Shown here: positions 32,435-54,890 of the stretch, piece by piece | Position numbering within the stretch: position 1 is the stretch's first letter | Layout of the letters: every line of letters begins with the position of its first letter | The notes under the pieces: generated by a model | What the model saw: the letters and a program-made list of their open reading frames with translations, nothing else | Databases searched by the model: none | Told to the model about the DNA's origin: nothing | DNA from: a virus | Lineage: Duplodnaviria; Caudoviricetes | Reading direction: 5' to 3' (one strand) | DNA: 64,000 nt | IMG/VR virus record: IMGVR_UViG_3300032319_000326 | Span: 27,734-91,733 of that record | Program-made: the position numbers and the translations under genes

Positions 32435-32467
32435 AAAACCCCATCGTAATTGATGGGGTTTTATTTT
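32435..32467 (+). terminator. Intrinsic terminator after sheath
   Basis: AAAACCCCATC-gtaatt-GATGGGGTTTT followed by a T-rich tract. Confidence 0.85.
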
Positions 32468-32515
32468 ATTTATTAGGATTTTAACTTTTTACCCACTCAT
32501 ATACTATTTATTAAT

Positions 32516-32866
32516 ATGAAGGATATTAAAAGAATTTGTGAATGGACCGGTCAAGAATTTTATGTCGATTTTAAACATAGAAACCAAAGATTTATAGATA
32601 AAAATGCAATGTATTCGTGGAGAAAAAATCAAAATAGAGAAATGATTAAATGTTTAAAGTGTGGAAAAGACTTTGAAAGATATAAAAATATATTACATCC
32701 GACGAGCGGAAAGCCTACTCAGTACTGTTCAAATGATTGTAATAGAACTTCTATTGAAAAACGAGAAAAATTAAAAAACTGGGCAAATTCAAACAAGAAT
32801 CATTGGTTTAATAAAAAATGTCAATCAAAAGTAAAAACAACAAATTTTCTTTTTTTGACTTTTTGA
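32516..32866 (+). pseudogene. Truncated homing endonuclease N-terminus (treble-clef Zn fingers)
   Basis: CLKC...YCSNDC Zn motif. Ends abruptly at KVKTT, where a KYG repeat would start. Confidence 0.55.
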
Positions 32867-32908
32867 AGTTTGGTGTAATATTTATCTATTAGATAAGGAG
32901 TATTGTAT

Positions 32909-34414
32909 ATGACTGAACGAGGTAAAAAAATAAGAGAAGCATTTTTCAAAAAGTATGGTGTTTATCATCCGTCTCAATTGCCTGAAGTTAAAGCTAAAAT
33001 AAAGCAAAAGAGAGACAGTGGTGCGTATGACAATATGGTAAAAAAGATGAAGGATACTCTAAAAGAAAAATATGGAGATGAAAACTATAACAATGTAGAG
33101 AAGGGAAAACGCACCAAATTGGAGAAATATGGAGATGAAAACTATAATAACAGAGATAAAATGACGCAGACCAACAATAAGAAATATGGAATGAATGTTT
33201 CACCTAACACTCTTAAAAGAACTCAAGAACGTGCATCTAATGGAGATATTGGTTTTAAATCTGATCAGTTTAAACAATATCTTGAAGATAATAATATAAA
33301 AAATGTGTCTCAATTATCGTGCGTTAAAGAAAAAAAGAGACAGGAGAAGATCAATTGTATGGTTGCAAATATTTTTGACGGCGGGCGTCTTAATAACGTT
33401 GTGTTACCTATTTTTCGACGAGAAGAATATACGGGGTGTGATTATGATAAAATGTATAAGTTTAAATGTTGTAAATGCAACAATGAATTTCAAGATAACT
33501 TATACTCTGGAAATATTCCACGTTGTTTGAATTGTTATCCTCACAATAGGTTTAAGTCATCAATAGAAACGGAGATTTTAGATTTCTTACATTCGTATAA
33601 CATAGAAACAAAACATCATGATAGAACTATTTTAAATGGATACGAAATTGATATATCAATACCATCACGCAATTTTGCAATTGAATGTGATGGAGTTTAT
33701 TGGCATAGTGAAATTGCTGGTAACAAGAACAAACATTATCATCTTAACAAAACTTTAAAGTGTAATCAGCAAAATATTCAATTGATGCACATATGGGATT
33801 GGGAATGGTGGTGTAAACAAGATATAATAAAAAGTATTTTATTAAGTAAGCTTGGTAAGTCCAAAAGAATATTTGCACGTAAATGTGAAATAAAACAAGT
33901 GATTAATGACGAAAAAGCTGCATTTTTGACCGATAACCATATACAGGGAAATGATACATCATCTATCAGATTGGGATTATATCACAACGATGTTTTGGTC
34001 TCACTAATGACGTTTGTTAAATCTAGATATGACAAAAAATATCAATATGAGTTATCTAGATATTGTAATATATTAAACACAAATGTAATAGGGGGTGCAT
34101 CTAAACTATTCAGTTATTTTGTAAAAAATCACGATGTAAATTCGATTGTAACGTATAGTGATAGAAGATTGTTTACTGGTAATTTATATAAACAAATTGG
34201 TATGTCATTTGTAGATAACACTCCGTCTGGATATCACTATTTTCATAAAAACAAAGGGGTACCAATTGAAAGAACACATTTTCAAAAACATAAATTGAAA
34301 GAAAAGCTTGAAAAATTTGATATTAGTTTAAGTGAATGGCAAAATATGCAAATTAATGGTTATGATAGAATTTGGGATTGTGGACATATGAAATTTAGTT
34401 GGAATCGTAAATGA
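32909..34414 (+). CDS. Free-standing homing endonuclease (Hef-like): KYG repeats, Zn ribbon, Vsr/EDxHD-type nuclease, C-terminal Mom/GNAT-like domain
   Basis: EIDI...AIECDGVYWH, HIWDWEW, FARKC, NHIQG, ELSRYC, GGASKL, TYSDRR, GYDRIWDCG. AAGGAG upstream. Confidence 0.8.
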   Translation: MTERGKKIREAFFKKYGVYHPSQLPEVKAKIKQKRDSGAYDNMVKKMKDTLKEKYGDENYNNVEKGKRTKLEKYGDENYNNRDKMTQTNNKKYGMNVSPNTLKRTQERASNGDIGFKSDQFKQYLEDNNIKNVSQLSCVKEKKRQEKINCMVANIFDGGRLNNVVLPIFRREEYTGCDYDKMYKFKCCKCNNEFQDNLYSGNIPRCLNCYPHNRFKSSIETEILDFLHSYNIETKHHDRTILNGYEIDISIPSRNFAIECDGVYWHSEIAGNKNKHYHLNKTLKCNQQNIQLMHIWDWEWWCKQDIIKSILLSKLGKSKRIFARKCEIKQVINDEKAAFLTDNHIQGNDTSSIRLGLYHNDVLVSLMTFVKSRYDKKYQYELSRYCNILNTNVIGGASKLFSYFVKNHDVNSIVTYSDRRLFTGNLYKQIGMSFVDNTPSGYHYFHKNKGVPIERTHFQKHKLKEKLEKFDISLSEWQNMQINGYDRIWDCGHMKFSWNRK

Positions 34415-34430
34415 TCACTATTTATATATT

Positions 34431-34721
34431 ATGATACGATTGACTCAAATTATTGAAGATTTAACCAAACCACAGATTAAAGAAGCTGTAGATCCATCTC
34501 TTTTAAAGTTAATTGACGAAGTAATTAATGACACAAATGTTTTGGTAGTTAATAATTTAAAGATGGTAAAAGACATTCTTTCAAAAGAACCAATTGATAA
34601 AGCTAGATTAGACGTGGCTCTAAGCAACTATAAACGTTATTTTAATAGAGACAACGGTGGCACGCCTGAAGTTATTCGTGGTATGACAATGCAAAATAAA
34701 CTAGACAAGTTATCAAAATGA
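34431..34721 (+). CDS. Hypothetical protein with N-terminal MIRL..I.E motif
   Basis: 96 aa; TATTTATA at 34419. Confidence 0.55.
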   Translation: MIRLTQIIEDLTKPQIKEAVDPSLLKLIDEVINDTNVLVVNNLKMVKDILSKEPIDKARLDVALSNYKRYFNRDNGGTPEVIRGMTMQNKLDKLSK

Positions 34722-36539: not shown

Positions 36540-36559
36540 ATTAAATACGTATTTGTTAT

Positions 36560-37084
36560 ATGCATATATCGGCAAAACTAAATTGTGATAAATTTTATAA
36601 CACATATTGTAGACATTTAAATGAATCTTCTTATATTATAGATTTTGGATCTTGTGATGTAAATGGAACATTAAAGCCCATTTTTAATAAACACAAATAT
36701 ATCGGTATTGATTTTTCTCCCGGACCAAATGTTGATATCGTTTGTAAAAATGAAGATGTCCCATTTAAAGATAATTTTTTTGATATAGTTGTTTCATCTT
36801 CTTGTTTTGAACACGACGATTTTTTTTGGTTAACATTTTTAGAAATGTGCCGATTAGTGAAGTCAGGTGGATACATTTATATAAACGTTCCTTCCAGTGG
36901 ACCTTACCACGCACATCCGACTGATAATTGGAGGTTTTATTTAGATAGTTGGAAAGCTTTGCAAAAATGGGCAATTAAAAGTGGATATAACATTGAATTG
37001 GTTGAACATTATATAGACACGATAAGTGCAGATTCAGATTCAACTCAGTGGAAAGACTCAATTGGAATTTTTAAAAAGTTATGA
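36560..37084 (+). CDS. Class I SAM-dependent methyltransferase
   Basis: IDFGSCDVNG, FDIVVSSSCFEH, KSGG, YHAHPTDNWRF. Confidence 0.8.
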   Translation: MHISAKLNCDKFYNTYCRHLNESSYIIDFGSCDVNGTLKPIFNKHKYIGIDFSPGPNVDIVCKNEDVPFKDNFFDIVVSSSCFEHDDFFWLTFLEMCRLVKSGGYIYINVPSSGPYHAHPTDNWRFYLDSWKALQKWAIKSGYNIELVEHYIDTISADSDSTQWKDSIGIFKKL

Positions 37085-37122
37085 AAAAAGCATCAGGTAA
37101 AAGCAATTTTTTATTTTTTTAA
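37081..37122 (+). pseudogene. Orphaned original 5' end (MKKASGKSN) of the 37931 gene
   Basis: ATGA overlap with the upstream stop. GKSN is repeated in the downstream gene (TGKSNL). Confidence 0.65.
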
Positions 37123-37137
37123 TCATATTTATTCTAT

Positions 37138-37941
37138 ATGAATGAAAGGTCTATGTCTAATACCGGAATATATAAAATAAGAAATATCATCAACGATGAC
37201 TGTTATATTGGAAGTGCATCATATACTTTTAATAAACGATGGAATACACATAAACATCAATTAAAAAATAATAAACATCATTCTATTATTCTTCAAAGAT
37301 CGTGGAATAAATACGGAGAAAACAATTTTATTTTTGAAATCATAGAATGTTGTGAACCATCTGAATGTTTAATAAAAGAACAACATTATTTGGATAATTT
37401 AAAACCAAAATATAATATAAATCCTAATGCTGAAAGTCCACTTGGCAGAAAACTTAAACCAGAAGACTGTAAAAAAATATCAGATAGAACAAGTGGTATA
37501 AAAAATCCATTTTTTGGAAAACATCACACAGAAGAAACTAAAAAATTACTTTCGGAGAAATTGAAAGGAAAAAATAAAGGAAAATTTTTGGCAGAAAAAA
37601 ACCCAATGTATAAAAAAACACATTCTGATGAAAATAAAAAAATAATGTCTATATCTAGTAATCAATTTTGGAATAGTGAAATGGGAATAAAATTAAAAGA
37701 AATCAAATCAAAAGAAAAATTAGGAAAAACTAATCAATTTGCAAAAAAAGGAACAGAACATCCGAATTTTGTTTCCACAACATACAAATTTTTAAATAAA
37801 CAATTAAATGAAGAATTCATTGGAACTATGTTTGATTTTAGAAAAAAATATAAACTGTGTTCAGATGTTTACTATCTATTAGATGGGAAAAAGAAAAAGT
37901 ATAAACAATACAAAGGATGGGTTGTAAGTTATGAAAACTAA
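37138..37941 (+). CDS. GIY-YIG homing endonuclease with NUMOD3 repeats (Seg-like)
   Basis: GIYKIRNIIN..CYIGSA, RW..H, EQHYLD, NPFFGKHHTEETKK, NPMYKKTHSDE. Confidence 0.9.
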   Translation: MNERSMSNTGIYKIRNIINDDCYIGSASYTFNKRWNTHKHQLKNNKHHSIILQRSWNKYGENNFIFEIIECCEPSECLIKEQHYLDNLKPKYNINPNAESPLGRKLKPEDCKKISDRTSGIKNPFFGKHHTEETKKLLSEKLKGKNKGKFLAEKNPMYKKTHSDENKKIMSISSNQFWNSEMGIKLKEIKSKEKLGKTNQFAKKGTEHPNFVSTTYKFLNKQLNEEFIGTMFDFRKKYKLCSDVYYLLDGKKKKYKQYKGWVVSYEN

Positions 37942-38596
37942 TACTGGTAAAAATATAAAACTAAAAACGGGTAAATCTAATTTAGATATAGTTAGAAGTT
38001 ATTTAAACGGAGAAAAGGCATTCGTACAAGTTGGCTACGATGCCAATTTGGAGAATAATAAACGCAAAGAAGGTGAAGAATGGGAGGATAGTCAAGGACA
38101 CAAATGGGTTTGGAAGAATAAAAGTAAACGTAGAGTTTCAAAGCGTGCTACGATCATTAATGAAAAACGATGTAAATGTTGTAATATGGATGTTCGTTGG
38201 GGCAATTATTTAGATGATCGTGTTTGGCCTAAAACAACGATGTGTTATGATTGTTTTACAAAATTTCAAACAGATCTTAAACTGATGGGTGTGTTTGATG
38301 TCTATAATGAACTACAGGATTTAAAAAATGAACGTAGTATTCTAGAAGAATATAAAAGAAAATTTGAAGAAAGTCAAAAATTTTGTCATGAAAATCAAGG
38401 TAAGCCTGTTGAATTTTTAGAAGAAGACGGTTCGTTTGAAAGATGGGAAGGTGTCCAAGATTATACTAAAATATTAGAAGACGTGACTAATGATTTGGTA
38501 AAAATTAATGACGGGTTACTAGACATTAATACTAAAATAAAAGAATACGAAGAATTGTATGAGTCAGCCAAGTCTAAGAGAAATAATAAAACGTGA
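37931..38596 (+). CDS. Conserved protein upstream of terminase (CxxC Zn motifs, coiled coil)
   Basis: RKEGEEW, CKCC...CYDC. Overlaps the terminase start. Confidence 0.55.
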   Translation: MKTNTGKNIKLKTGKSNLDIVRSYLNGEKAFVQVGYDANLENNKRKEGEEWEDSQGHKWVWKNKSKRRVSKRATIINEKRCKCCNMDVRWGNYLDDRVWPKTTMCYDCFTKFQTDLKLMGVFDVYNELQDLKNERSILEEYKRKFEESQKFCHENQGKPVEFLEEDGSFERWEGVQDYTKILEDVTNDLVKINDGLLDINTKIKEYEELYESAKSKRNNKT

Positions 38597-39395
38597 GTAT
38601 AAGAAGTGTATAGAAGATCCTATATACTTCATGAAAAAATATGTTAAGATTCAACATCCTATAAGAGGTACGGTTGGATTCGAACTATATCCATTTCAAG
38701 AAGATGCTTTACAAAACTTCGTTGATAATCAATTAAACATTGTTCTTAAGAGTCGTCAGATGGGTATCAGTACTCTTACAGCAGCTTATAGTTTGTGGTT
38801 AATGACATTTCATAATGATAAGAACATTCTTTGTATTAGTATTACCCAAGAAACAGCGAAAGAAATTGTCACTAAGGTAAGATTTGCAAATGACAATCTT
38901 CCAAGTTGGTTAAAAGTTCCATGTGTAGAAGATAATAGATTATCATTGCGATTGAAGAACGGATCTCAAATCAAAGCGGTTTCATCTGCTGGTACAGCAG
39001 GTCGTTCATCAGCACTCTCATTATTAATCATTGACGAAGCTGCATTTATCGATGGCATTGAGGAAATTTGGTTATCTGCTCAATATACATTATCCACTGG
39101 TGGTAGAGCTATCATATTAAGTACGCCAAACGGCGTAGGTAACTTCTTTCATAAAACGTGGGTTGAAGCCGAGGAAGGTAAGAACAAAGACTTCAAGACT
39201 ATTAGATTGCCATGGCATTTACATCCAGAAAGAGATCAATCATGGAGAGATAAACAAACTGAATTATCCGGTGTAAAAGGCGCCGCCCAAGAATGCGACT
39301 GTCTATGGGGAGAGTCTACGATTAGAGTCAGAGATAAAACATCAGGAAAAGAATTTGATATTTCTTTAGAAAAATTGTATTCCGGAGAATTGTAA
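38559..39395 (+). CDS. terL: Terminase large subunit, N-terminal (ATPase) part + 31-aa split intein N-fragment
   Basis: KSRQMGIST Walker A, IIDEAAF Walker B, STPNG. Ends QECD|CLWGEST...LYSGEL. Confidence 0.92.
   Translation: MSQPSLREIIKREYKKCIEDPIYFMKKYVKIQHPIRGTVGFELYPFQEDALQNFVDNQLNIVLKSRQMGISTLTAAYSLWLMTFHNDKNILCISITQETAKEIVTKVRFANDNLPSWLKVPCVEDNRLSLRLKNGSQIKAVSSAGTAGRSSALSLLIIDEAAFIDGIEEIWLSAQYTLSTGGRAIILSTPNGVGNFFHKTWVEAEEGKNKDFKTIRLPWHLHPERDQSWRDKQTELSGVKGAAQECDCLWGESTIRVRDKTSGKEFDISLEKLYSGEL
39300..39392 (+). mobile_element. Atypically split intein, IntN (31 aa)
   Basis: CLWGESTIRVRDKTSGKEFDISLEKLYSGEL: block A starting with Cys, then stop. Confidence 0.85.
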
Positions 39396-39431
39396 TCATA
39401 TGTATTATACAAGAATGTGATTGCGACCCAT

Positions 39432-39485
39432 ATGTGTGTACCTAAAAATTTGTTAGGGTGCAAACTATTTACAATAGACATATGA
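39432..39485 (+). pseudogene. Probable remnant of an endonuclease gene between the split intein halves
   Basis: MCVPKNLLGCKLFTIDI* with ATGA overlap onto the IntC start, preceded by promoter-like TATGTATTA. Confidence 0.45.
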
Positions 39486-40675
39486 TCGATTCAAATGTTA
39501 AACTAAATACCAAGTTTCAAATTTTGACTCCAACAGGTTACCAAGATTTTTTTGGAATCAGAAAAATAAAAAAGGATTGTTACTATAAAATATTATTGAG
39601 TAATGGCAAAATAATAAAATGTTCGGACAATCATCCTTTTATATATAAAAATTCAGAACTGCGATCTCACGATATCAAAATCGGATCAAAAATATCGGGA
39701 GCAAATGGTGTAGATGTAGTTGTCATAACGATAGAAAAATTCGAAAATCTCATTGATTTATATGATATAGTAAACGTCTCCGGCGGTAATGTTTTTAATG
39801 TAGACGGAATTGTTTCACATAATTGTGATTTTAGTACATCTGGTAATCAAGTGGTAAGTGTAGAAGTTCTTGAATTTTATAGACAAACTCATCTAAAAGA
39901 TCCCGTGGAAAAACGGGGTAACAATCAAGATCTATGGATCTGGGATTATCCAAATTATAGTAAAAACTACATATTAACAGCAGACTGTGCTAGAGGAGAT
40001 GGCGGAGATTTTAGTGCGTTTCACGTTTTAGATATTGAAACGATGGAACAGGTTGCTGAATATAAGGGGCAATTAACTACAAAAGATTATGGCAATTTAC
40101 TAGTGAGTGTGGCGACAGAGTACAATAACGCATTGTTGGTTGTAGAAAATAATAATATAGGATGGGCTACATTACAACAGATCATAGACAGAAATTATCA
40201 AAATACATTTTATAGCGCAACTGATTTAACCGTTGTAGACGTGGAAAGATCATATTCCAATAAGTTAAATTCAGCCGATAAAAAATTAGTTGCTGGATTT
40301 ACTACAACTAGTAAAAATAGACCGATGATTATAAGTAATTTAGAATTATTTTTTAGACAAAAACAAATAATTATGAAGTCTAAAAGGTTATATGAAGAGT
40401 TAAATGTTTTCATTTGGAACGGTCATAAAGCCGAAGCTATGAGAGGTTACAACGACGATTTAGTAATGTCTATAGGTATTGGTTTGTGGGTTCGTGAAAC
40501 TGCTTTGAAACTTAGAAACGATCAAATTGCTTATAACAAGGCTATGATTTCTAATATCTCTAAGGTTTCCAGTCAAATAATACTACCTAAAGAAGTAAGT
40601 GCAGTACCAGATCATCATAAAACTATGGAATTTACAGTTAAAGATAAAAAAGAAAGTTTAACTTGGTTAATGTAA
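39482..40675 (+). CDS. terL: Split intein C-fragment (114 aa, 39482-39823) + terminase large subunit nuclease domain
   Basis: ILTPTGYQDF.GI.K, CSDNH (block B), YDI (block F), VSHN|CDF; then ADCARGDG.D and NDDLVM. Confidence 0.9.
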   Translation: MIDSNVKLNTKFQILTPTGYQDFFGIRKIKKDCYYKILLSNGKIIKCSDNHPFIYKNSELRSHDIKIGSKISGANGVDVVVITIEKFENLIDLYDIVNVSGGNVFNVDGIVSHNCDFSTSGNQVVSVEVLEFYRQTHLKDPVEKRGNNQDLWIWDYPNYSKNYILTADCARGDGGDFSAFHVLDIETMEQVAEYKGQLTTKDYGNLLVSVATEYNNALLVVENNNIGWATLQQIIDRNYQNTFYSATDLTVVDVERSYSNKLNSADKKLVAGFTTTSKNRPMIISNLELFFRQKQIIMKSKRLYEELNVFIWNGHKAEAMRGYNDDLVMSIGIGLWVRETALKLRNDQIAYNKAMISNISKVSSQIILPKEVSAVPDHHKTMEFTVKDKKESLTWLM

Positions 40676-40698
40676 ATACTTATATACTAGAATAATAT

Positions 40699-43600
40699 AT
40701 GGCAGATCAATCATTTCAGGAATTAAGAAATCGTTCATTATTTGCACGTTTGAAACGTTTGTTTTCAAACGATGTAATCGTTCGTAATATCGGAGGTAAA
40801 AAGTTAAAGGTTATTGATACGGATGAAATTCAGTATGCTACGGATCGTAATAGTTTAAGAGATCGATTTAATAGATTGCGTACAAGTTCATATAATCAAT
40901 ATACCAGAGATTTTAATTTATCATATCAAAGCAGTCGTGTAGAACTATTTCGTGATTATGACTGTGTTGGTCCTGATACAATCATACCTCTACCAGATGG
41001 TACTAAACCAACTATAGCTGAACTAACGGAGAGATATAAAGATAAACCCCAAGAAAGATTTTATGTATTTTCATACGATCACGAAACTGACAGTATAAAA
41101 TTAGGTAAAGCATTTCATCCACGTAAAAAGGCAGGTAAACGTCAGGGATACAAAGTTACATTTGATAACGGACAGTATGTAGTTGGAAGTTTGAAACATC
41201 CGTTTATGATGCGAGATGGTTCATATAAACGAATTTTTGAACTAAGAGTCGGTGATTCAGTGATGCCATTTTATGAACATGAATATGGTTATAAAAAGAA
41301 TGGAATTAAACCTTATAGACGAGTTTATAATTTTTCTAAAGGTTATCAATCAATACATAAAATGGTTGTGGAACAATTTCAGAGAAAGTTGAATGGTGAT
41401 GAAGTAATTCATCATAGAGATTTTAACGGGTTTAATAATTCTCCAGAAAATTTACAAATAATGGACCGAAAAAATCACTATGAATTTCATGCTAACCATA
41501 GTAAAAATGTAATATGGAGTGATGAAAATTATGAAAACCAACTCAACAAATTAAAATCACATCCAAATTATATTAACCGTGAGTTTCATCATTGGGATGG
41601 AGAACGAAATGGTGAGAATAACCCGTTTTATGGAAAAGAACATTCTAATGAATCGAATGAAAAGCGTTCAGAGACTCTTAAATCTGTATTTGTTAATAGA
41701 GATCAAACCGGAGAAAAAAATCCAAAATATAGAGGTGATGTAACATTTGATAATGTTAAAGAAAAAGCATACGAATATTACAAAGAATATTCAAAAATCA
41801 ATTTGTGGGATTTCATTAAACATATAAAGTGTGATCATTCTACTCTTCAAAATCGTCTCAAAAAAGAGAAGCATGACTGGAAATCTTTTAAACAAGAAGT
41901 AGAAACTACATTAAATCATAAAATCGTATCTATTGAGATGGTGGGTGAAACAGATGTATATGATGTCACAGTTGAGGAGTATCATAACTTTGCGACTGAT
42001 AGTTGTTTCGTGAAAAATACAATGGATATGGATCCAATTCTAGCATCTGCATTGGACATTTACTCGGATGAATGTACAACCAGAAATGAAATGGGAGAAA
42101 TTCTACAAATCAAATCCACAAACGATGAAATCAAGAATATATTACATAATTTGTTCTACGATATTCTAAATATTGAATTCAATCTTTGGAGTTGGACTCG
42201 TTGTATGGTTAAGTACGGAGATTTCTATCTTCGTCTGCATATTAGTCCTGAATACGGAGTCTACATGGTAGAACCTCTGAGTACCTATTATGTTACCCGT
42301 GTAGAAAATGCTGTGTTGACAAACAAGAACTTTGTTAAGTTTCAAGTCAATCTTCCATATGGAAACAAAATGGAAGATTTAGAAAATTATCAAATTGCAC
42401 ATTTCCGTTTATTGAGCGACAGTAACTTTTTGCCATATGGAAAATGTTTAGTCGGTGAAACTCACGTTGATACCGAATTTGGTTCTAAATATATAAAAGA
42501 TCTACTCATTGGAGAAAAAATATGGTCTTTCAATACAAATAACAAATTGTTCGAATTAACCAGTGTAAAAAACAAAATCAACTCTGGTGTAAAAGAGACT
42601 ATCAAAATTAGAACTCAACACAATTTTATAGAATCTAGCAAAACCCATCCTATTTTAACTTTTAATAAAGTTACAAATGAATTGGAATACAAACAAACGT
42701 CTGATGTCAAGATTGGAGATTTGTTGTTAATAAACGCCAATGAAAACAAAAAATCAAAAATTTGTTATATTAACACAGATTTGGTCGGTTTTAACAAAAA
42801 CGGATGGAAAAATAATGTTATCAACTTACCTAACAACATAGACTGCGAGTTTTCTGAATTAATGGGATTTATGATTGGCGATGGGTGGTTGAGTGGAGAA
42901 AATACTAGAGTGAATTTTGCTATAGGGACAGATGATATACAAAACAAACATTATGCGTCTATTTTAGAAAAATATTCGGGGAAAATCGGAAATTGGTTGT
43001 CTCCCAAGAAAAATTCAGGCGGACAATTTTATGTTGATAACAAAATGTTGGCAACTGTATTGTTTAATAATGGGTTGATTGGAAAAGCAAAAACTAAAAG
43101 AATACCAACGTGGGTGTTTGAATCAAGTGAAGACATACAATTAGCTTTCATTAAAGGATTGACAAACGCCGATGCGTGGAGTTTTGATGATGGATTTGCC
43201 AACAGATATACAATTTCATTATGCAATAAAGATTTGATATATGATTTCAAACGTCTTTTACAATTTAATAATATAAAATCGTCAATACCAACTGAAGATG
43301 ATACCGTTTCAGAGGTGACTATTTGTGGAGTTGATTGTATTAAACATGGGGAATATTCAATAAATTATTATTTGGAAGGCAACAAAAAACAACAACTCAA
43401 AAAATATAATCACTTAGACAATTCTAATATATTGTTGGAACCAGTTGTTAATATTGAGTTTACAGGAGAAAAAGAAACGTGGGATATTCAAGTTGAATCG
43501 GAAAATTCAAATTTTGTAGCAAATGGCGTCGTCGTTCATAATTCGATGTTGGAAGGCGCACGACGTGTTTGGAAACAATTAAGTTTGATGGAAGACGCAA

Positions 43601-44793
43601 TGTTAATTCATCGTATCATGCGTGCACCTGAAAAACGTATTTTCAAAGTTGATATTGGTAGTATACCTCCAAATGAAGTTGATAATCATATGGAACGTAT
43701 TATGAACCAAATGAAAAAGACTCCTTATTTGGATCAACAAACAGGAGACTATAACTTACGTTTCAATCTACAAAACATGGTTGAAGACTTTTTCTTACCT
43801 GTTCGTGGTAGTGATAGTGGTACTAGTATTGATAATTTACCAGGTCTTGAATGGACAGGAACCGATGATATCGAATATTTACGTAACAAGATGATGGCGG
43901 CACTCAAAATTCCTAAGGCATTTTTAGGTTATGATGAATCTCTATCTGGTAAAGCTACATTAGCAGCTGAAGATATTCGTTTTGCTCGTACAATTCAACG
44001 AGTTCAAAGAATTATTGTTAGTGAATTGAATAAGATCGCCGTTATTCATTTATATTCACAGGGATACCGTGACGAATCGTTGGTGGATTTCAGCCTTGAA
44101 CTTACTAATCCATCCACTATATTTGAAAAAGAAAAGATTGATGTTTGGAAGAGTAAGGTTGATGTTAGCAAAGACATGCAAGAAAATAAATTCTTCAGTA
44201 AAAAGTGGATTTATGAAAATGTATTTAGTCTTACAGATCAAGACATGATCGAATTACAAAAACAACTTATCGACGATGCTAAGGGAAATTATAGATTTAA
44301 ACAAATCGAAGAAGAAGGAAATGACCCAGCTATTAAGTTCTTAAAATCAATCGACTCTGATAAAGAAGAAGGTGGTGGTCCGGATGGAGGAACTGCGGAT
44401 GAAACCGATAGTGGATTGACCGGTGGAGATTCGGGCGGTACACCGCCAACCGAACCGCCAACCGAACCGCCAACTGAACCAACGCCTGTAGAACCAGCAG
44501 CTGCTAGTGGTGGCGAAACTAAAGCTCCTACTCCTGCCAAGTTATCTGAACGTGATCAAACTGGCAGAAAAAATGCAAGAAAATATCCATTTGGCGAAGA
44601 TCCACTTGGTACATTAGAAAACAATAGACGTAGTGATTTATCAGTAACTCACAAGTATAAAAACAAATCTCCGTTATCATTAGAATCTCTCAAAGGACTG
44701 ACTAATATGTTAAATACAGTTGAAGAGGAAAAGAAAATTTTAAGAGAAGGAGAAGAAAAATCCTACATGGATGAAAGAAATATAAAAGAATAA
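40699..44793 (+). CDS. Portal protein (T4 gp20-like) with two inteins; ~646 aa after splicing
   Basis: ALDIYSDE, KYGDFYL, PYGK|SMLE, EDAMLIHRIMRAPEKR, EDFFLPVRG, ALKIPK. Confidence 0.93.
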   Translation: MADQSFQELRNRSLFARLKRLFSNDVIVRNIGGKKLKVIDTDEIQYATDRNSLRDRFNRLRTSSYNQYTRDFNLSYQSSRVELFRDYDCVGPDTIIPLPDGTKPTIAELTERYKDKPQERFYVFSYDHETDSIKLGKAFHPRKKAGKRQGYKVTFDNGQYVVGSLKHPFMMRDGSYKRIFELRVGDSVMPFYEHEYGYKKNGIKPYRRVYNFSKGYQSIHKMVVEQFQRKLNGDEVIHHRDFNGFNNSPENLQIMDRKNHYEFHANHSKNVIWSDENYENQLNKLKSHPNYINREFHHWDGERNGENNPFYGKEHSNESNEKRSETLKSVFVNRDQTGEKNPKYRGDVTFDNVKEKAYEYYKEYSKINLWDFIKHIKCDHSTLQNRLKKEKHDWKSFKQEVETTLNHKIVSIEMVGETDVYDVTVEEYHNFATDSCFVKNTMDMDPILASALDIYSDECTTRNEMGEILQIKSTNDEIKNILHNLFYDILNIEFNLWSWTRCMVKYGDFYLRLHISPEYGVYMVEPLSTYYVTRVENAVLTNKNFVKFQVNLPYGNKMEDLENYQIAHFRLLSDSNFLPYGKCLVGETHVDTEFGSKYIKDLLIGEKIWSFNTNNKLFELTSVKNKINSGVKETIKIRTQHNFIESSKTHPILTFNKVTNELEYKQTSDVKIGDLLLINANENKKSKICYINTDLVGFNKNGWKNNVINLPNNIDCEFSELMGFMIGDGWLSGENTRVNFAIGTDDIQNKHYASILEKYSGKIGNWLSPKKNSGGQFYVDNKMLATVLFNNGLIGKAKTKRIPTWVFESSEDIQLAFIKGLTNADAWSFDDGFANRYTISLCNKDLIYDFKRLLQFNNIKSSIPTEDDTVSEVTICGVDCIKHGEYSINYYLEGNKKQQLKKYNHLDNSNILLEPVVNIEFTGEKETWDIQVESENSNFVANGVVVHNSMLEGARRVWKQLSLMEDAMLIHRIMRAPEKRIFKVDIGSIPPNEVDNHMERIMNQMKKTPYLDQQTGDYNLRFNLQNMVEDFFLPVRGSDSGTSIDNLPGLEWTGTDDIEYLRNKMMAALKIPKAFLGYDESLSGKATLAAEDIRFARTIQRVQRIIVSELNKIAVIHLYSQGYRDESLVDFSLELTNPSTIFEKEKIDVWKSKVDVSKDMQENKFFSKKWIYENVFSLTDQDMIELQKQLIDDAKGNYRFKQIEEEGNDPAIKFLKSIDSDKEEGGGPDGGTADETDSGLTGGDSGGTPPTEPPTEPPTEPTPVEPAAASGGETKAPTPAKLSERDQTGRKNARKYPFGEDPLGTLENNRRSDLSVTHKYKNKSPLSLESLKGLTNMLNTVEEEKKILREGEEKSYMDERNIKE
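40963..42018 (+). mobile_element. Portal intein 1 (352 aa) with HNH endonuclease and NUMOD3
   Basis: DYD|CVGPDT ... HPF ... IHHRDFNGFNNSPENL ... NPFYGKEHS ... VYDVTV..HNF...CFVKN|T. Confidence 0.88.
42445..43542 (+). mobile_element. Portal intein 2 (366 aa) with LAGLIDADG endonuclease
   Basis: PYGK|CLVGET ... THP ... LMGFMIGDG ... FIKGLTNADA ... TWDIQV...NFVANGVVVHN|S. Confidence 0.9.
44443..44481 (+). repeat. 12-bp tandem repeat encoding PPTE x3 in portal C-terminal tail
   Basis: ccgccaaccgaa repeated. Confidence 0.8.
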
Positions 44794-44843
44794 ACACAAA
44801 TCCTATATATTTAAGGAGTTCAGATATATTTATAATTAATATT

Positions 44844-45728: not shown

Positions 45729-46683
45729 GAAACTCTTAAGTAAATTAAGAGCTAAAAATGAGGCTAGTACCACAGGTACAGGTCCAGTTGCTTCTGGTCC
45801 TGTTGCTGTAGGAGGAGATGCTGCTAGAACACCGTTTGCGTTCTCAAAGAGGGGAGCTAGACCAGATACTTATACACAATTAGGTTATACGTTAGCTAAA
45901 CCGATCAACCGAAGTGCTAATTACAAATTAGAAAATCAAGTATATAGTCAACCAGCATATGCAACTCCTGCTTTTAATATAGAACCAGCAGACACATATA
46001 CAGATGAAAATGGTTTGGTTCAACACAACGATCCTGATATGGATCCTAATTTAATTGGATATAAACAAGGTAGTTTACCATGTACCGAAGGTTTTAATGG
46101 GATGAAATATGAACAAGAAGGTCAACCTCAAACTCCTCAACAAAATCCCTCTGTACCCGTTCAACCAACTGTTCAACCAGTTAAATCACAAACACAACCG
46201 TCTGTAGATGTAAAAACCTACGATGTATTACCCGACTTTACTAAATTTGATACTAAATTAAAAAGTGGTACGGAATCATTAAAAAACAATTTACAAAAAA
46301 CTATACAAGATAAAATTTTAGGCAAAAAGATTGTTGTGAGAGCTAGTAAAGGATATAAACAGCCAGAAACTGATTATACCATAAACGTTACAGGAGTAAC
46401 AATTGATTATTATTATGATAGATATGTAATTATCATAAACGGACGTGAAGAAAATAAACAAAAAGTTGCTAAATTCTTCATTAAACCAGGATTTTCTATT
46501 AAGATATTAGGCTCTGCAGAATTAAAACCAAAAGATCGATATCAAGTTGCTAAATCCCAAGCACTTGTTAATCCTCAGCAATCAGCAACGCCTACAAATA
46601 CGGTAACATCAGATGAAGAAAACTCTCCACCTGAACCAAAATCCGATACCAAAGAACAACCTTCTACACAACCCAAAGTATAA
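45700..46683 (+). CDS. Hypothetical head-cluster protein
   Basis: 327 aa with NEASTTG...TPFAF motif and low-complexity linkers. Confidence 0.55.
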   Translation: MKPHLKHKIKKLLSKLRAKNEASTTGTGPVASGPVAVGGDAARTPFAFSKRGARPDTYTQLGYTLAKPINRSANYKLENQVYSQPAYATPAFNIEPADTYTDENGLVQHNDPDMDPNLIGYKQGSLPCTEGFNGMKYEQEGQPQTPQQNPSVPVQPTVQPVKSQTQPSVDVKTYDVLPDFTKFDTKLKSGTESLKNNLQKTIQDKILGKKIVVRASKGYKQPETDYTINVTGVTIDYYYDRYVIIINGREENKQKVAKFFIKPGFSIKILGSAELKPKDRYQVAKSQALVNPQQSATPTNTVTSDEENSPPEPKSDTKEQPSTQPKV

Positions 46684-46684
46684 T

Positions 46685-48394
46685 ATGAAACAAGTATTGA
46701 TTGATGTAATGCCATTTGAATTTAAGAGATCCGCCTTAAATGAATCGCTTAAGGACGGAAAACTACTAGTTAGTGGTGTATTACAACGTGCTGATGCAAA
46801 AAACCAAAATAATCGACTTTATCCCGAAGATGTACTAAAAAGAGAATCTGAAAAGTACATGCAAAATTTTGTAAAACAACGTCGAGCTATGGGGGAACTA
46901 GATCACCCGGAATGTCACCGAGCTAGTGCTCAAGCATTGACTATTGATGGGTGGAAATATATTGAAGATATTGTTGTTAATGAAAAAATCGCAACTTTAA
47001 ATACAAAAACAAATTCTATAGAATACCAACACGCCTTAAGAGTTATTAATGAACCATATAAAGGTAAAATGATATCTATTAAAGGTAAAAATATAGATTT
47101 ATTGGTTACGCCGAATCATAGGTTTGTCTTAAATACAAGAAATGGTGAATTTATAGAAAAAACTGCGCAAGAAATATTTGAAATTTCAAAGATTAACAAG
47201 TATCCACATTTATCTATTCCGACCGTGGCAGATAATTGGGATGGTATAAAATATGATATTTTCAAAATAGATGCTGTCAAAGTCGAAGATATTGCTAATA
47301 ATCAATCGTTGGATTATACTATCAAACAGACCACCTCTTTAGATTTAAATGCCAGTGCTTGGTTTTCATTTTTAGGTTTTTATTTGGCTGAAGGTCATTG
47401 TGTAGATAGAAATACTTCTACTGGATATGGCATATTTATCACTCAAAACAAAGGTGAAATCGCTGATGAATTCAGAGAAATATTAAAGCAGTTAAGTCCC
47501 GAACTAAAATGGAACGAATGGGACAAAGGAGATGGTGGAACTGTGTTTAACACATCTGACGTGCGGTTATGGACTTATCTTTCCAAATTGGGGAATAAAT
47601 ATAATAAATATATACCTCAAGAAATAAAAGATGCTTCACAAGACCTTCTTCAAAATTTATATGATTGGTATTTAAATGGAGATGGAACAGTTGTGGGGGA
47701 TTATGAAAGATCATCGATATTTTCGGTATCTAAAGAATTAATAGAAGATCTTTATGAAATTATATTAAAACTCGGAATGACCGGGGTTATTAAAGAACAA
47801 GTAACAACCGATGATTATATGTTTGCTGGAAGGTTAATCGAAGCAAAAAATAAAGTTCCGTTATATAGACTATGGATTAAAGAATCTAAAGCTATACATC
47901 TAGATTTTAGATTTATAAAAATAAAAGAAGTTGATTATGACGATAGGGTTTATTGTTTAACAGTTGATAACGGTGTATTTTATTGTAGAGATTTAAACAA
48001 ATGTTTTTGGTCTGGAAATTCATCGGTGGTAAATTTAAAAAATGTCAGTCACAACATTGTAGATATGGGTTGGGATGGTAAAGATTTAGTTGGTACAATA
48101 GAAATTCTTCCTACACCAAGTGGTAATATCTTAAGAGACCTGTTACAATCAGGTATTCTTTTGGGTATCAGTAGTCGTGGATTGGGAAGTGTTAAAAAAG
48201 ATATGCGTGAAAATGCAGATGTTGTACAAGATGACTTTGACTTAATTGCTTTCGACTTCGTAAGCAATCCAAGTACACAAGGAGCTTTTATGTATCCACA
48301 GGGAAAAATCAATGAAAGCGTTGAACAAAAAATAATAGTTAATCCGTATAGTAATGTTGAAAGAATTATTCACAACATTCTATCAGAGTTATAA
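46685..48394 (+). CDS. Prohead protease (T4 gp21-like) with intein; ~200 aa after splicing
   Basis: QRADAKNQNNRLYP, GELDHPE|...|SSVVNLKNVSH, GISSRGLGS, FDFVSNPST. Start reassigned to ATG 46685. Confidence 0.92.
   Translation: MKQVLIDVMPFEFKRSALNESLKDGKLLVSGVLQRADAKNQNNRLYPEDVLKRESEKYMQNFVKQRRAMGELDHPECHRASAQALTIDGWKYIEDIVVNEKIATLNTKTNSIEYQHALRVINEPYKGKMISIKGKNIDLLVTPNHRFVLNTRNGEFIEKTAQEIFEISKINKYPHLSIPTVADNWDGIKYDIFKIDAVKVEDIANNQSLDYTIKQTTSLDLNASAWFSFLGFYLAEGHCVDRNTSTGYGIFITQNKGEIADEFREILKQLSPELKWNEWDKGDGGTVFNTSDVRLWTYLSKLGNKYNKYIPQEIKDASQDLLQNLYDWYLNGDGTVVGDYERSSIFSVSKELIEDLYEIILKLGMTGVIKEQVTTDDYMFAGRLIEAKNKVPLYRLWIKESKAIHLDFRFIKIKEVDYDDRVYCLTVDNGVFYCRDLNKCFWSGNSSVVNLKNVSHNIVDMGWDGKDLVGTIEILPTPSGNILRDLLQSGILLGISSRGLGSVKKDMRENADVVQDDFDLIAFDFVSNPSTQGAFMYPQGKINESVEQKIIVNPYSNVERIIHNILSEL
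46913..48019 (+). mobile_element. Prohead protease intein (369 aa), LAGLIDADG, ends in GN
   Basis: HPE|CHRAS..LTIDGW, VTPNH, FLGFYLAEG, YLNGDG, VYCLTV...WSGN|S. Confidence 0.88.
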
Positions 48395-48473
48395 TTTTAT
48401 AAACACATCAATTTTTTAATTGTTGTGTTTTTTAATAATTCGGTTTATAATTATATACCAAGACAAACGCTGT

Positions 48474-50147
48474 ATGATTAAAAACTGGATAGAGAATAAT
48501 TTAATTTCAAATAAAAAACTTGTATCTAAAAGATGTAAAAAAGAATGGTTTATTAAAAATAAACATATTGATGTGTATAATGAAATCTTATTACAAACTA
48601 ATTTTTTAAATGAATCAACATTTCCGCAAAAAATATGGCATATAGTAAATGAAAAATTTAGTTTGTATAAGTGCAATAATCCTAATTGTAACAATGTACC
48701 TAATTTTTTAACATATACAAGTGGATATTCAAGAACATGTAGTAATGTATGTGCTCAATTTGATCCACAAACTGTAAGCAAAATAAAACAGACCAATTAT
48801 AAAAAATACGGTGTTGAATATGGATTGAGCAATAAAGATATAATTGAAAAACGAAAATTTACATGTGTTAAAAATTATGGAGTTGATAATCCAACCAAAT
48901 CAAAAATTATTTTAGATAAAATTGCAAGTTCAAACAAAGAAAAATATGGTGTTGAATGGATTTTACAAGATCTGCCTAAAAAAGAATTGGGTATGGTTAA
49001 AAAATATGGTGTAAAAAATGCTCAACACAGTGAAGACATAAAACTGAGAACATCGATAACTCGCCGTTCTATATTTTATGATACATTATTTTCTACAGAT
49101 AGATTAAAGAATAAAGTTGTTCCGTTATTTACAAAAGAAGAATATATTATTGGTGGATATTATTCAAATTTTGAATTTATATGTTTAACGTGTAACACTG
49201 AATTTTTTGATTGTTTGGAGGATGGTGATGTTCCTAGATGTACAAACTGTTATAAACATTCTTCGATTTTTGAAGAAGAAGTATTTAATTTTATACAAAG
49301 TTTAGTTACAGTTGATATCATACGAAATGATAAAACTATATTGAACACATTAGAATTGGATGTATATATACCCAAATTAAAATTAGCATTTGAATGTAAT
49401 GGTTTGTATTGGCACGGTGAAATTAATGGTGGTAAAAATAAAAAATATCATATAAATAAAACAGCCGAGTGTAAAAATAAAGGAATACGATTGATTCATA
49501 TATTTGAAGACGAGTGGTTATTTAAAAAAGAAATAGTTAAAAGTAGAATAAAAGATTTGTTAACCAAAACAGAAAATAAAATATTTGCTAGAAAGTGTAT
49601 TATAAAATCGATAAGTTCAAAAGAAAGCAATTTATTTTTAGAAAGTAACCATTTACAAGGAAAAGATAATTCATCTATCAAATACGGATTATATTTTAAT
49701 AACGAATTAGTGTCTTTAATGACATTTGGCAAACTTCGAAGTGCTCTTGGTAATAAAAATATACAGATTGATTGTTGGGAATTGTATAGATTTTGTTCTA
49801 AGTTAAATACAACAATCACAGGCGGAGCTAGCAAATTGTTAAATTACTTTGTTAATAATCACAATCCCCAAAAAATAATAAGTTATGCAGATAAAAGATG
49901 GAGTGTGGGTAATTTGTATGAATCTATAGGATTTAAATTGATTTCCGAAGGAGTTCCTAATTATTGGTACTATGGTCGAGGTAATTCATATAAAAGATAT
50001 CATAGATATGGGTTCGCAAAACATACATTACATACTAAGTTAAATAACTATGATGATAAATTAAGTGAATGGGAAAATATGAAAAACAATGGTTATGATA
50101 GAATTTGGGATTGTGGTAGCATTAAATTTGAATTAATTTTAAATTGA
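48474..50147 (+). CDS. Free-standing homing endonuclease (Hef-like), paralogous to 32909
   Basis: Zn motifs, KYG repeats, ELDVY..LAFECNGLYWH, HIFEDEW, FARKC, GGASKL, SYADKR, GYDRIWDCG. Start reassigned to ATG 48474. Confidence 0.8.
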   Translation: MIKNWIENNLISNKKLVSKRCKKEWFIKNKHIDVYNEILLQTNFLNESTFPQKIWHIVNEKFSLYKCNNPNCNNVPNFLTYTSGYSRTCSNVCAQFDPQTVSKIKQTNYKKYGVEYGLSNKDIIEKRKFTCVKNYGVDNPTKSKIILDKIASSNKEKYGVEWILQDLPKKELGMVKKYGVKNAQHSEDIKLRTSITRRSIFYDTLFSTDRLKNKVVPLFTKEEYIIGGYYSNFEFICLTCNTEFFDCLEDGDVPRCTNCYKHSSIFEEEVFNFIQSLVTVDIIRNDKTILNTLELDVYIPKLKLAFECNGLYWHGEINGGKNKKYHINKTAECKNKGIRLIHIFEDEWLFKKEIVKSRIKDLLTKTENKIFARKCIIKSISSKESNLFLESNHLQGKDNSSIKYGLYFNNELVSLMTFGKLRSALGNKNIQIDCWELYRFCSKLNTTITGGASKLLNYFVNNHNPQKIISYADKRWSVGNLYESIGFKLISEGVPNYWYYGRGNSYKRYHRYGFAKHTLHTKLNNYDDKLSEWENMKNNGYDRIWDCGSIKFELILN

Positions 50148-50172
50148 TGTATATTTATATAGTATATCAGAT

Positions 50173-51037: not shown

Positions 51038-51038
51038 A

Positions 51039-51632: not shown

Positions 51633-51787
51633 ATATCAATAAATATAAAATATTTTGATATATTTACGTTTTATATTATATTTATTATTCAAATACATCA
51701 TTCTTTGATGTCATATCATTTTATCTTCTTTGGAGTTCTTCAATAACTCCACAACCAAATAACAATAAGAAAGACAGAAATATAATT

Positions 51788-52861: not shown

Positions 52862-52915
52862 AATTAGTTTGCGAGTAAAAAACCTAACAGTAATTAAATA
52901 AAGAAAGATACAAAT

Positions 52916-54745
52916 ATGAGTATGGATATTAAAAGTCTATTGACAAACAATATGAATCCACAGGCCAAATTAATGGCAGAAACACGTGGACTACAAGGCA
53001 AATGGGAAAAGACAGGCCTCCTAGAAGGTTGCAAAGGTGTTGAAAAAGCACACATGTCAATCCTATTAGAAAATCAAGCAAAACAATTGCTAGACGAAGC
53101 AACCACAACTGGTACCTCCACCAGTTCAGAACAATGGGCTGGCGTAGCTCTTCCATTGGTTCGTCGTGTGTTTGCTGAAATCGCTGCGAAGGAATTCGTA
53201 AGCGTTCAACCAATGAATCTACCATCCGGTCTAATCTTCTATCTAGACTTCAAGTATGGTACAAACGCTCCCGGACAAGATTTGCGTAACTTGAACAACG
53301 GTAGTTCTGTAACTACCCGTGGTGGTAAGCAATTGAACGATAGTTTGTTCGGTGGTACAGGTAAGAAGTTGGGTTCAACTGATAGCACAGTACGTGGTCT
53401 ATACGGTCAAGGTGCTTATGCTTATTCAATCCGTCCAGTAAGTAGTTCCGTTGTTACTCTAGCTAAAAGTGCAACCGCAACTTCAATCGGTAACACAATT
53501 CAAACAGCTTCATGGAACGACGTGCAATTTGATGCTGATTTGAGTTCATCCGTAGTAGCTAAGAAGTTGTTCAAAGTAACCTTGAATCACAGCGATAACG
53601 TAACTACTGGTATTGCTGCCAATGGTTATATGTACAACGTTGACTTGAATGCAGTACGTTCATTCAACTTAATCTCAGGTTCAACCACTCCAACATCTCT
53701 AAGAAGTAATGGTTTGGTATTGAATACATATTCTAGAGCAATTAATACTGGTAGTTTAAATACACCATTCTATCAATCAGTATATATCATATCTGCTTCT
53801 AACAGTGCATTGGGTGGTGTAGCAAGTAAGGTTAAATTGGTCTATAGTTTACAACCTACCGATAACCTACGTGGTGACTTTGAAGCTGGTAAGACAGCTG
53901 GTGAAGGTTCTGGTCAACAAGGTAACGTTGCTACACAAAGCATCGATACTGATATTAGTATCCCAGAAGTTAACTTGGTACTAAACAGCGAACCAATCGT
54001 TGCTAAGACCCGTAAGTTGAAGGCAGTCTGGACCCCAGAATTGGCTCAAGACTTGAACGCATATCATTCTATCGATGCAGAAGCAGAATTGACTGCTCTA
54101 TTGAGTGAATATGTATCTATGGAAATTGATCTTGAAATCCTAGACATGTTGAACGAATCCGTTGAAGGTATAACAACCGAAGCTTGGTCCGCCCAAATCG
54201 GTGTTGAATTCAGCAAGACATTGAATGCAAATACTGGTGAAGCATTCTTCACACGTAATGCAAACAGTTCACCAAATCGTACTGCTTACGTAAAGAGCAC
54301 TTGGTTCCAAACTCTTGGTAACAAGATTCAAAAGGTATCTAACACAATCCAAAAATTGACCCTACGTGGTGGTGCTAACTTCTTGGTCGTAAGTCCAGAC
54401 GTAGCAACCATCTTGGAATCAATCCCAGGATATGTAGTAAACACCGACGGTGACAGTGCTAAGTTCGCAATGGGTGTTGCAAGAGTTGGTAGCTTCGCAA
54501 GTCGCTTCCAAGTTTACAAGAACCCATATATGACCGATAATATCGTATTGGTTGGTTTCCGTGGAAATAACTTCCTAGAAACAGGCGCAGTGTATGCTCC
54601 ATACATCCCACTAATCCAAACTCCATTGGTCTATGATCCAGTGAACTTCACTCCACGTAGAGGTGTAATGACCCGCTACGCTAAGAAAGTCGTACGCCCT
54701 GAATTCTATGGAAAAGTTATTATCGGTGATCTCGATACCGTATAA
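52916..54745 (+). CDS. Major capsid protein (T4 gp23-like)
   Basis: LPLVRR, VQPMNLPSGLIF, AKTRKLKA.WTPELAQDL, EIDLEI, YAPYIPL, GVMTRY. Confidence 0.97.
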   Translation: MSMDIKSLLTNNMNPQAKLMAETRGLQGKWEKTGLLEGCKGVEKAHMSILLENQAKQLLDEATTTGTSTSSEQWAGVALPLVRRVFAEIAAKEFVSVQPMNLPSGLIFYLDFKYGTNAPGQDLRNLNNGSSVTTRGGKQLNDSLFGGTGKKLGSTDSTVRGLYGQGAYAYSIRPVSSSVVTLAKSATATSIGNTIQTASWNDVQFDADLSSSVVAKKLFKVTLNHSDNVTTGIAANGYMYNVDLNAVRSFNLISGSTTPTSLRSNGLVLNTYSRAINTGSLNTPFYQSVYIISASNSALGGVASKVKLVYSLQPTDNLRGDFEAGKTAGEGSGQQGNVATQSIDTDISIPEVNLVLNSEPIVAKTRKLKAVWTPELAQDLNAYHSIDAEAELTALLSEYVSMEIDLEILDMLNESVEGITTEAWSAQIGVEFSKTLNANTGEAFFTRNANSSPNRTAYVKSTWFQTLGNKIQKVSNTIQKLTLRGGANFLVVSPDVATILESIPGYVVNTDGDSAKFAMGVARVGSFASRFQVYKNPYMTDNIVLVGFRGNNFLETGAVYAPYIPLIQTPLVYDPVNFTPRRGVMTRYAKKVVRPEFYGKVIIGDLDTV

Positions 54746-54774
54746 TATTTGATTTAAAACCTCAATAAACACAG

Positions 54775-54802
54775 GGCTTTCATGAAAATGAAAGCCTTTT
54801 TT
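54775..54802 (+). terminator. Intrinsic terminator after MCP
   Basis: GGCTTTCAT-GAAA-ATGAAAGCC-TTTTTT. Confidence 0.9.
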
Positions 54803-54890
54803 ATTATATACACGATTAGTTTCAAAAAAATTACAACGGTCTCTAGGAAATTAGTTGTATTTTTGTTATAGTATTATATACTTATTGTAT

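Follow-up and report, generated by a model that had tools for sequence, protein, structure and literature searches.

In I-TevI, I-TevII, I-TevIII and segB of phage T4, and in mobE of phage Aeh1, the ribosome-binding site of the homing endonuclease gene (HEG) is held in an RNA hairpin with a late promoter inside it, and late transcripts lack the 5' arm (PMC2988022, where Gibb and Edgell 2009 is cited for these ribosome-site hairpins). I-TevI also represses itself by way of an operator similar to its homing site, with 15 of 20 positions identical, that overlaps the late promoter (PMC2988022). Vsr-like (EDxHD) endonucleases and "fractured genes" were described by Dassa et al. (2009), together with hairpins in 5' untranslated regions that carry late-promoter boxes (PMC2677866). 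The present analysis concerns a 64,000-nucleotide stretch (the window; positions 27,734 to 91,733 of IMG/VR record IMGVR_UViG_3300032319_000326) of a 91.7-kb contig with about 30% G+C. It represents the late structural module, colonised by selfish elements, of a T4-like phage that is uncultivated. Among these are three free-standing Vsr-like endonuclease genes of the phrog_3339 type: E503 after the tail sheath gene, E575 after the prohead protease gene and E619, a weaker match, after the major capsid gene. Leaders of such genes were found to carry antisense copies of conserved coding motifs of the gene upstream. We propose, with about even confidence, that these leader copies mask the endonuclease ribosome site in read-through transcripts, as a long-range variant of the T4 I-TevI/mobE scheme.

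The arrangement resembles the T4-type HEG hairpins in that the 3' arm lies over the HEG Shine-Dalgarno sequence and AUG, a promoter-like box sits between the arms, terminator-like hairpins stand upstream in the sheath, protease and capsid families, and the host phage is T4-like. It differs in that the arms are separated by 170-590 nt and do not make up a local hairpin, the 5' arm consists of a conserved coding motif in an upstream essential gene, and the enzymes, known here from sequence alone, are Vsr-like rather than GIY-YIG or HNH. The principle of hiding a ribosome site is known; what is new is the long range and the neighbour's conserved coding motif in the proposed role of masking strand. 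In the Min Jou interaction of MS2, an internal segment of the coat gene masks the replicase start. Here, too, a downstream initiation region can pair with a segment inside the upstream open reading frame (ORF), but the phage is a DNA phage and the downstream gene is selfish. With the Vsr-like family of Dassa et al. the endonucleases appear to share the ExDGxxxH core, an N-terminal repeat region and a free-standing position in phage DNA, and terminase is again among the split-intein hosts. Unlike in the fractured genes, the endonucleases mostly follow their neighbour genes instead of lying inside them, the paired partner is within the neighbour's coding sequence, and the ORF in the terminase spacer of the window has been deleted.

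The best case was found after the tail sheath gene (28457-32425, 1322 aa; Pfam Phage_sheath_1 and Phage_sheath_1C; coordinates are those of the window, plus strand unless stated). E503 (32909-34414; phrog_3339, E = 1e-111 to 9e-111; motif IECDGVYWH) was assigned the start ATG 32909 because relatives fix the start codon there. Its leader at 32883-32908, the proposed 3' arm, abuts this ATG, contains the Shine-Dalgarno sequence AAGGAG (32895-32900) and matches the reverse complement of sheath positions 32293-32318 at 22 of 26 nt; within this match, a core of 11 bp is perfect and includes AAGGAG. The sheath segment, the proposed 5' arm, encodes ENNTPDLID, a motif conserved in all sheath relatives. 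Matches of 19/22 or 22/26 were reached by none of 1000 shuffles of the 42-nt intergenic sequence, scored against the whole 3969-nt sheath gene on either strand, and the predicted RNA duplex of the two segments has an energy of −25.6 kcal/mol (z = −5.1). This pair had been overlooked in the earlier sequence-only reading of the window.

The comparison set consisted of 118 fetched related loci (L-numbered), which supplied the relatives, and the contig itself. The E503 leader is shared by ten of them, 18-23 nt before the ATG. A profile scan over the last 510 nt of the sheath gene in 22 loci gave a single peak, at the ENNTPDLID motif, with a mean z of 1.8 over a background SD of 0.36 and z >2 in 10-12 of the 22 loci. 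Leader and motif co-vary within the sheath family: pairs from the same locus scored higher than cross-locus pairs, both by DNA identity (P = 0.015) and with G-U pairs allowed (P = 0.006), and at variable sheath positions the leader agrees with its own allele at 5 of 7, as judged by eye. In the RNAalifold consensus of ten sequences, 18 pairs were kept and 97% of cells were paired, compared with 36-46% when the partner was slid. The family alignment contains U-G/C-G and G-U/A-U alternations at wobble positions of the coding arm.

Across the comparison set, antisense pairing was scored for 883 distinct start regions (−30 to +3) against the 600 nt upstream, using an ungapped, G-U-tolerant antiparallel score. 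The 112 HEG start regions had a mean z of 1.16, compared with 0.05 in the 771 others (P = 2.5e-8), and z exceeded 2.5 in 19.6% of HEG start regions and 2.9% of those of other genes. The claim of the sequence-only reading that endonuclease cassettes copy conserved motifs of the adjacent gene, and do so more often than non-endonuclease genes, was thereby borne out for start regions, and the outcome named there as refuting it, a lack of enrichment over controls, was not seen. In the sense-orientation control, in which the same start regions were compared with the reverse complement of the upstream 600 nt, no enrichment was seen (P = 0.23), and the promoter-proximal interval from −100 to −31 showed no HEG enrichment in either orientation. 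Tests of whole intergenic regions (80 loci, both strands, DNA and six-frame peptide) were marginal and driven by the near-identical loci L047/49/51/52/59. The enrichment over controls is therefore strong for antisense matches at the start region, marginal for the intergenic region as a whole and absent at −100 to −31. Within the window, fixed-length best matches of 16, 18 and 21 nt between intergenic sequences and neighbour genes gave P values of 0.06-0.99 against dinucleotide shuffles, the E503 leader being cut at TTG in this test. At the peptide level in six frames, only the sheath (P 0.03-0.04) and capsid (P 0.05) sites of the window stood out, with P values uncorrected for the ten tests made.

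The partners of the HEG starts are found 170-220 nt upstream, for the most part inside conserved motifs of the sheath or protease. This geometry recurs in at least four lineages with unrelated sequences: sheath/E503, protease/E575, L055-57-64 and L047-101. The long-range helix was present in both the minimum free energy (MFE) and the centroid folds of L083 (266 nt, z = −5.4) and of the window (641 nt), where z was −2.8 despite a 440-nt insertion. It was likewise found, in both types of fold, in L014 (protease to HEG, z = −6.0), in which pairing runs into the first HEG codons, and in L057 (z = −4.1). In E503 and its relatives the 3' arm is predicted to pair with the Shine-Dalgarno sequence and/or the start codon; the distance between the arms is 210 nt in relatives and 587 nt in the window, and the 5' arm belongs to a coding sequence. 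Local pairing is confined to the class-B protease loci and E575 of the window.

In L055 (5600-5830), L057 (4330-4565) and L064, the E575-type gene is oriented opposite to the structural operon. Pairing at −26 to −30 kcal/mol is predicted between the start region of this gene and sequence antisense to the 5' end of a neighbouring 357-aa gene, and the helix could act on the transcript of either strand.

E575 (48474-50147; phrog_3339, E = 1e-122 to 4e-122), with its true start at ATG 48474, belongs to a very common family with more than 594 relatives in viral contigs. It follows the prohead protease gene (Peptidase_S77, 46613-48394), which contains a LAGLIDADG intein at about aa 116-453 and has insert-free relatives. 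The leader at 48455-48473 matches the codons of IAFDFVS (48245-48263) in antisense at 14/22 in the window, which is chance level. When the homologous leaders of 18 relatives were compared with the LIAFDFVS codons, a single profile peak was obtained at this position, with a mean z of 1.9 over a background SD of 0.4 and z >2 in 9 of the 18 loci. The class-A leader before the E575-type ATG, TCAAAGTCAAAGGCTATAAT, resembles the reverse complement of the LIAFDFVS codons. In class-B protease loci the promoter-like box is flanked by an inverted repeat, and E575 of the window is predicted to form, in place of the long-range helix, a local hairpin at about 48438-48490 in which the promoter-like box and the AUG region are paired. 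An apparent amino acid covariation in L013 (S for A) was rejected, as the codons show no correspondence at the DNA level.

At the capsid gene (52916-54745, phrog_138), the putative partner is the NNFLET codons at 54566-54584, −177 nt from the capsid stop. The copy is part of a near-palindromic TCTCTAGGAAATT element with an upstream half-copy (54818-54855, minus strand, 15/19), located by a −35-like box. The copy itself, at 54837-54855, is antisense at 15/19, with a single-locus P of 0.05-0.14 (0.05 at the peptide level). A profile of six capsid loci had its only peak at NNFLET (mean z 3.2, z >2 in 5 of 6), and the element is kept in L113, L116, L118 and L062; the six loci are one lineage, so that this reflects conservation and not independent support. 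The element could be a protein-binding site. The gene that follows, E619 (54891-56714; DUF7487), is endonuclease-like. Its Vsr-like core VIELDGNAFH is joined to a methyltransferase-like C-terminus with LDPCCGFGGR and TSIPYF motifs, for which the Pfam methyltransferase matches are weak (E 0.013-0.08). Pfam MTES_1575 scored 25.6 and 18.5 bits for the putative Vsr-like cores, under the 38.2-bit cutoff; IECDGVYWH and VIELDGNAFH are readable by eye.

A copy of another kind was found in the gene for the large terminase subunit, TerL. The first ORF (38559-39395; Terminase_6N) comprises the N-extein and a 31-aa IntN (39300-39392); its alignment to the uninterrupted TerL of L001 ends with ...AAQECD at 39299. 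The second ORF (39458-40675) comprises IntC, which runs to 39823 and ends in ...VSHN, and the C-extein, which begins with Cys. IntN and IntC are thus fused to the two TerL halves in separate ORFs, in different frames and with a stop after IntN. AceL-TerL and GOS-TerL are atypically split inteins, and by description alone the window's element is like them in its short IntN, its long IntC ending in HN before Cys, and its phage TerL host. A group I intron was rejected as the cause of the interruption, with no Rfam match at either the gathering or the E-value threshold; the interruption is a split intein.

The spacer between the two halves carries, at 39410-39427 and after a promoter-like box, a sense copy of the intein-less TerL junction. 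It translates as QECDCD, the exact spliced extein junction (BLOSUM62 score 40, compared with 32 as the best of 150 shuffles). Its nucleotide identity is 14/18 to the window's own exteins and 16/18 to the intein-less alleles of relatives, and all differences are synonymous. In L087 and L108-112 the copy is kept between the promoter-like box and the ATG of a 245-252-aa spacer ORF that lies between IntN and IntC, as in the fractured-gene layout; domain searches found no recognisable nuclease domain in this ORF. The corresponding loci are 39300-39823 in the window, L087:10454-11330 and L108:8717-9596. In the window the spacer is 62 nt long and has no endonuclease gene, the ORF having been lost by deletion between two AAAAATT repeats.

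The sequence-only reading had listed four instances of a motif copy next to an endonuclease promoter, in the order sheath, terminase, capsid and protease, and these fared differently. The terminase copy is real, and the evidence for the capsid copy is suggestive. The protease match is at chance level in the window and clear in relatives, and the sheath match (FIY*DFNFLPT, 32465-32497) is taken as a chance match. The latter, which lies in the leader of a 116-aa ORF, compares DFNFLPT with sheath DFNILPS in the sense orientation at 13/21 nt in the core and 18/33 overall (hand count). Its shuffle P values were 0.03-0.04 at the peptide level and 0.3-0.98 at the DNA level, uncorrected for ten tests, and no counterpart was found in ten close relatives or in four more distant sheath-to-endonuclease loci.

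We favour RNA masking for the antisense leader copies because the enrichment is antisense-only and confined to −30 to +3, and because the copies cover the Shine-Dalgarno sequence and AUG and, in the sheath family, track their own allele. In a read-through transcript from the upstream gene, the HEG initiation region would pair with a conserved stretch of that gene's coding sequence, situated about 130-180 nt before the stop in the protease, sheath and capsid genes. The predicted helix would close over the gene tail, the terminator and the promoter-like box of the HEG, and would bury the HEG Shine-Dalgarno sequence and AUG. If the helix forms in vivo, translation of the HEG would be lowered or coupled to that of the upstream gene, while transcripts starting at the putative HEG promoter would lack the 5' arm and be translatable. 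The logic of T4 I-TevI, segB and mobE would thereby be made long-range, with an immutable coding motif as the 5' arm, and a conserved partner motif would, we infer, keep the control robust after transfer to a new genome. If true, this would show how selfish nuclease genes behind highly expressed structural genes keep their own expression low, and how borrowing an unchangeable motif of the neighbour lets such control survive transfer. It would also give an annotation and dating rule for metagenomic phage cassettes, namely an antisense match of the nuclease start region to the final 200 nt of the gene that precedes it. A few cases, of which the TerL spacer is the foremost, are flagged as possible true target mimics, and it is through these that nuclease specificity could become predictable.

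Several observations weigh against masking. The loci share ancestry, and their independence is overstated by the P values. Compensatory evidence is thin: two pairs changed on both sides, a number reached by 42 of 500 shuffles (10 sequences), and G-U compared with A-C mismatches (34 vs 23) are not decisive. In the protease family, pairs from the same locus were not distinguished from cross-locus pairs by DNA identity (P = 0.48) or with G-U allowed (P = 0.08). The 5' arm lies in a translated ORF, and ribosomes would therefore open the helix. The partner in L055/57/64 is antisense to a divergent neighbour, and an RNA with both arms needs an unproven transcript. The transcript starts are putative and the promoter boxes are recognised by sequence only. 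Two copies are left uncovered: for the capsid motif and its copy an RNA helix was rejected, being absent from the fold, and no upstream RNA partner was found for the sense TerL copy (z = 0.6). Finally, masking does not account for the finding that in every case the partner is the most conserved motif of the neighbour, at 130-180 nt from the insertion point, which is how a homing target would look.

This last point bears on the proposal that the copies imitate the homing site and serve as DNA operators, which the endonuclease would bind uncut, repressing its own promoter in the manner of I-TevI; if so, each copy would disclose the target. We consider this improbable. It has the I-TevI precedent, and the cases are alike in having, near the HEG promoter or leader, a 16-26-nt sequence similar to a conserved part of the gene with which the element is associated. 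A distance of 130-180 nt is typical for cleavage sites of free-standing endonucleases, and the partner motifs are the most conserved segments of the neighbours. With respect to the promoter the evidence is mixed: the E503 copy begins at the box's 3' edge, the copy at the capsid gene abuts the −35-like hexamer and the TerL copy lies between box and ATG, but the class shows no enrichment at −100 to −31. The TerL copy fits best, being in sense orientation, closer to intein-less alleles, in front of the spacer-ORF ATG and without an RNA partner, but the spacer ORF has no recognisable nuclease domain, and the copy might just as well be a fragment picked up from an intein-less allele. The capsid copy, a near-palindrome by a −35-like box that is kept in five related loci and missing from the fold, may fit as well, but it represents one lineage with a marginal single-locus P. 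Most copies, unlike the I-TevI operator, are antisense and on the ribosome site instead of the promoter, and the enrichment is specific for orientation and confined to the start region. The sheath-family leader follows the HEG-bearing allele and not foreign alleles, and the likeness is to neighbour motifs and not to established homing sites of these enzymes. The suggestion of the sequence-only reading that the copies serve as promoter-adjacent DNA operators irrespective of orientation is not supported, given the antisense-only enrichment, the null result at −100 to −31, own-allele tracking in the sheath family and the helix in the folds. The proposed layout exists, but not as it had been described; the class behaves like RNA partners on the ribosome site and not like promoter operators. 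The operator idea is viable for the TerL spacer copy and perhaps for the capsid copy. That some copies (TerL spacer, capsid and possibly the antisense leaders, acting at both DNA and RNA levels) are endonuclease DNA-binding sites mimicking the homing target seems to us unlikely; if true, I-TevI-style autorepression would extend to free-standing Vsr-like and fractured-gene endonucleases, and specificity would be readable from the cassette.

Two further explanations assign the copies no present role. They might be chance ancestral matches in AT-rich DNA, inherited by all relatives because each partner is conserved for a reason of its own, coding constraint in one and ribosome-site or promoter function in the other. 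Three of the four window sites of the sequence-only reading are individually at or near chance, the whole-intergenic tests are marginal and inflated by near-identical loci, and covariation is weak; nevertheless, a 22/26 match seen in 0/1000 shuffles, the same geometry in four or more unrelated lineages, the difference between HEGs and other genes with its clean orientation control, and the own-versus-cross effect in the sheath family make this account decidedly improbable. Alternatively, the copies might be scars of arrival, either fragments of intein-less or HEG-less alleles or inverted micro-duplications from double-strand-break repair. The TerL copy does resemble a piece of a foreign intein-less allele with synonymous differences only, and genes have repeatedly been gained and lost here, as seen in the deleted spacer ORF with its AAAAATT repeats, the E503 stub of L108-112 and the extra 116-aa remnant. 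Scars should decay, however, whereas the sheath and protease leaders are still complementary although the relatives' endonucleases are only 50-87% identical, and scars would not explain why copies always land on the ribosome site; we regard this origin as very unlikely. RNA masking is retained as the best explanation of the antisense leaders.

The box ATATTTAT is a recurrent promoter-like motif. It lies between the helix arms before E503 (32878-32885), and ATAATTATA takes the corresponding place before E575. By the author's hand count, 12 of the 23 copies of ATATTTAT in the window are located at most 45 nt upstream of a same-strand start codon; no overall over-representation was found in the window. 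The copies close to start codons stand in front of both structural and endonuclease genes; examples of the 23 sites are 13424, 16081, 28415, 32878, 37125, 44826, 50151, 57605, 59863 and 61359. The motif, near the reverse of T4's TATAAATA, is probably the late-promoter box of the phage.

Between the sheath gene and E503, an intrinsic-terminator-like hairpin (32435-32462; a 12-bp stem followed by a T run, with equivalents in relatives) is followed by the 116-aa ORF (32516-32866), which has a weak match to phrog_1271 HNH. In L081-L094 the ORF is absent and the E503-type ATG lies 103-114 nt after the sheath stop. The ORF is Cys-rich and has its own promoter-like leader; the insertion is seen only in the window and is absent from all ten close relatives. 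It probably represents what is left of the N-terminal, zinc-finger part of a second endonuclease gene, one that had entered the site behind the sheath gene. In L108-L112, near 5001-5199, only the last ~75 codons of an E503-type gene are left after the sheath gene, as a decaying stub.

The late T4-like module is encoded at 28.4-56.7 kb and contains the sheath gene, TerL preceded by a 221-aa ORF of unknown family, the portal gene (T4 gp20 type), the S77 prohead protease gene and the major capsid gene. A megablast search of 10 kb against phage records gave no match. Intergenic sites of the module are insertion hot spots, and the post-capsid site holds different endonuclease genes among relatives. 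A GIY-YIG/NUMOD3 homing endonuclease gene (37138-37941; Pfam matches) is present in L083 and L100 and absent from L082, L084-88, L094-96 and L102; in the intergenic match and shuffle tests of the window, its leader had no significant partner or flanking-gene copy. Together with a gene for an S-adenosylmethionine (SAM) methyltransferase, it forms a variable insert (36560-37941) between the 350-aa and 221-aa genes; L083 carries the GIY-YIG gene alone, and many relatives carry neither. The portal gene (40699-44793) contains two inteins, at about aa 96-440 and 585-936. Of the portal and protease inteins (40699-44793 and 46613-48394), relatives carry none, one or both.

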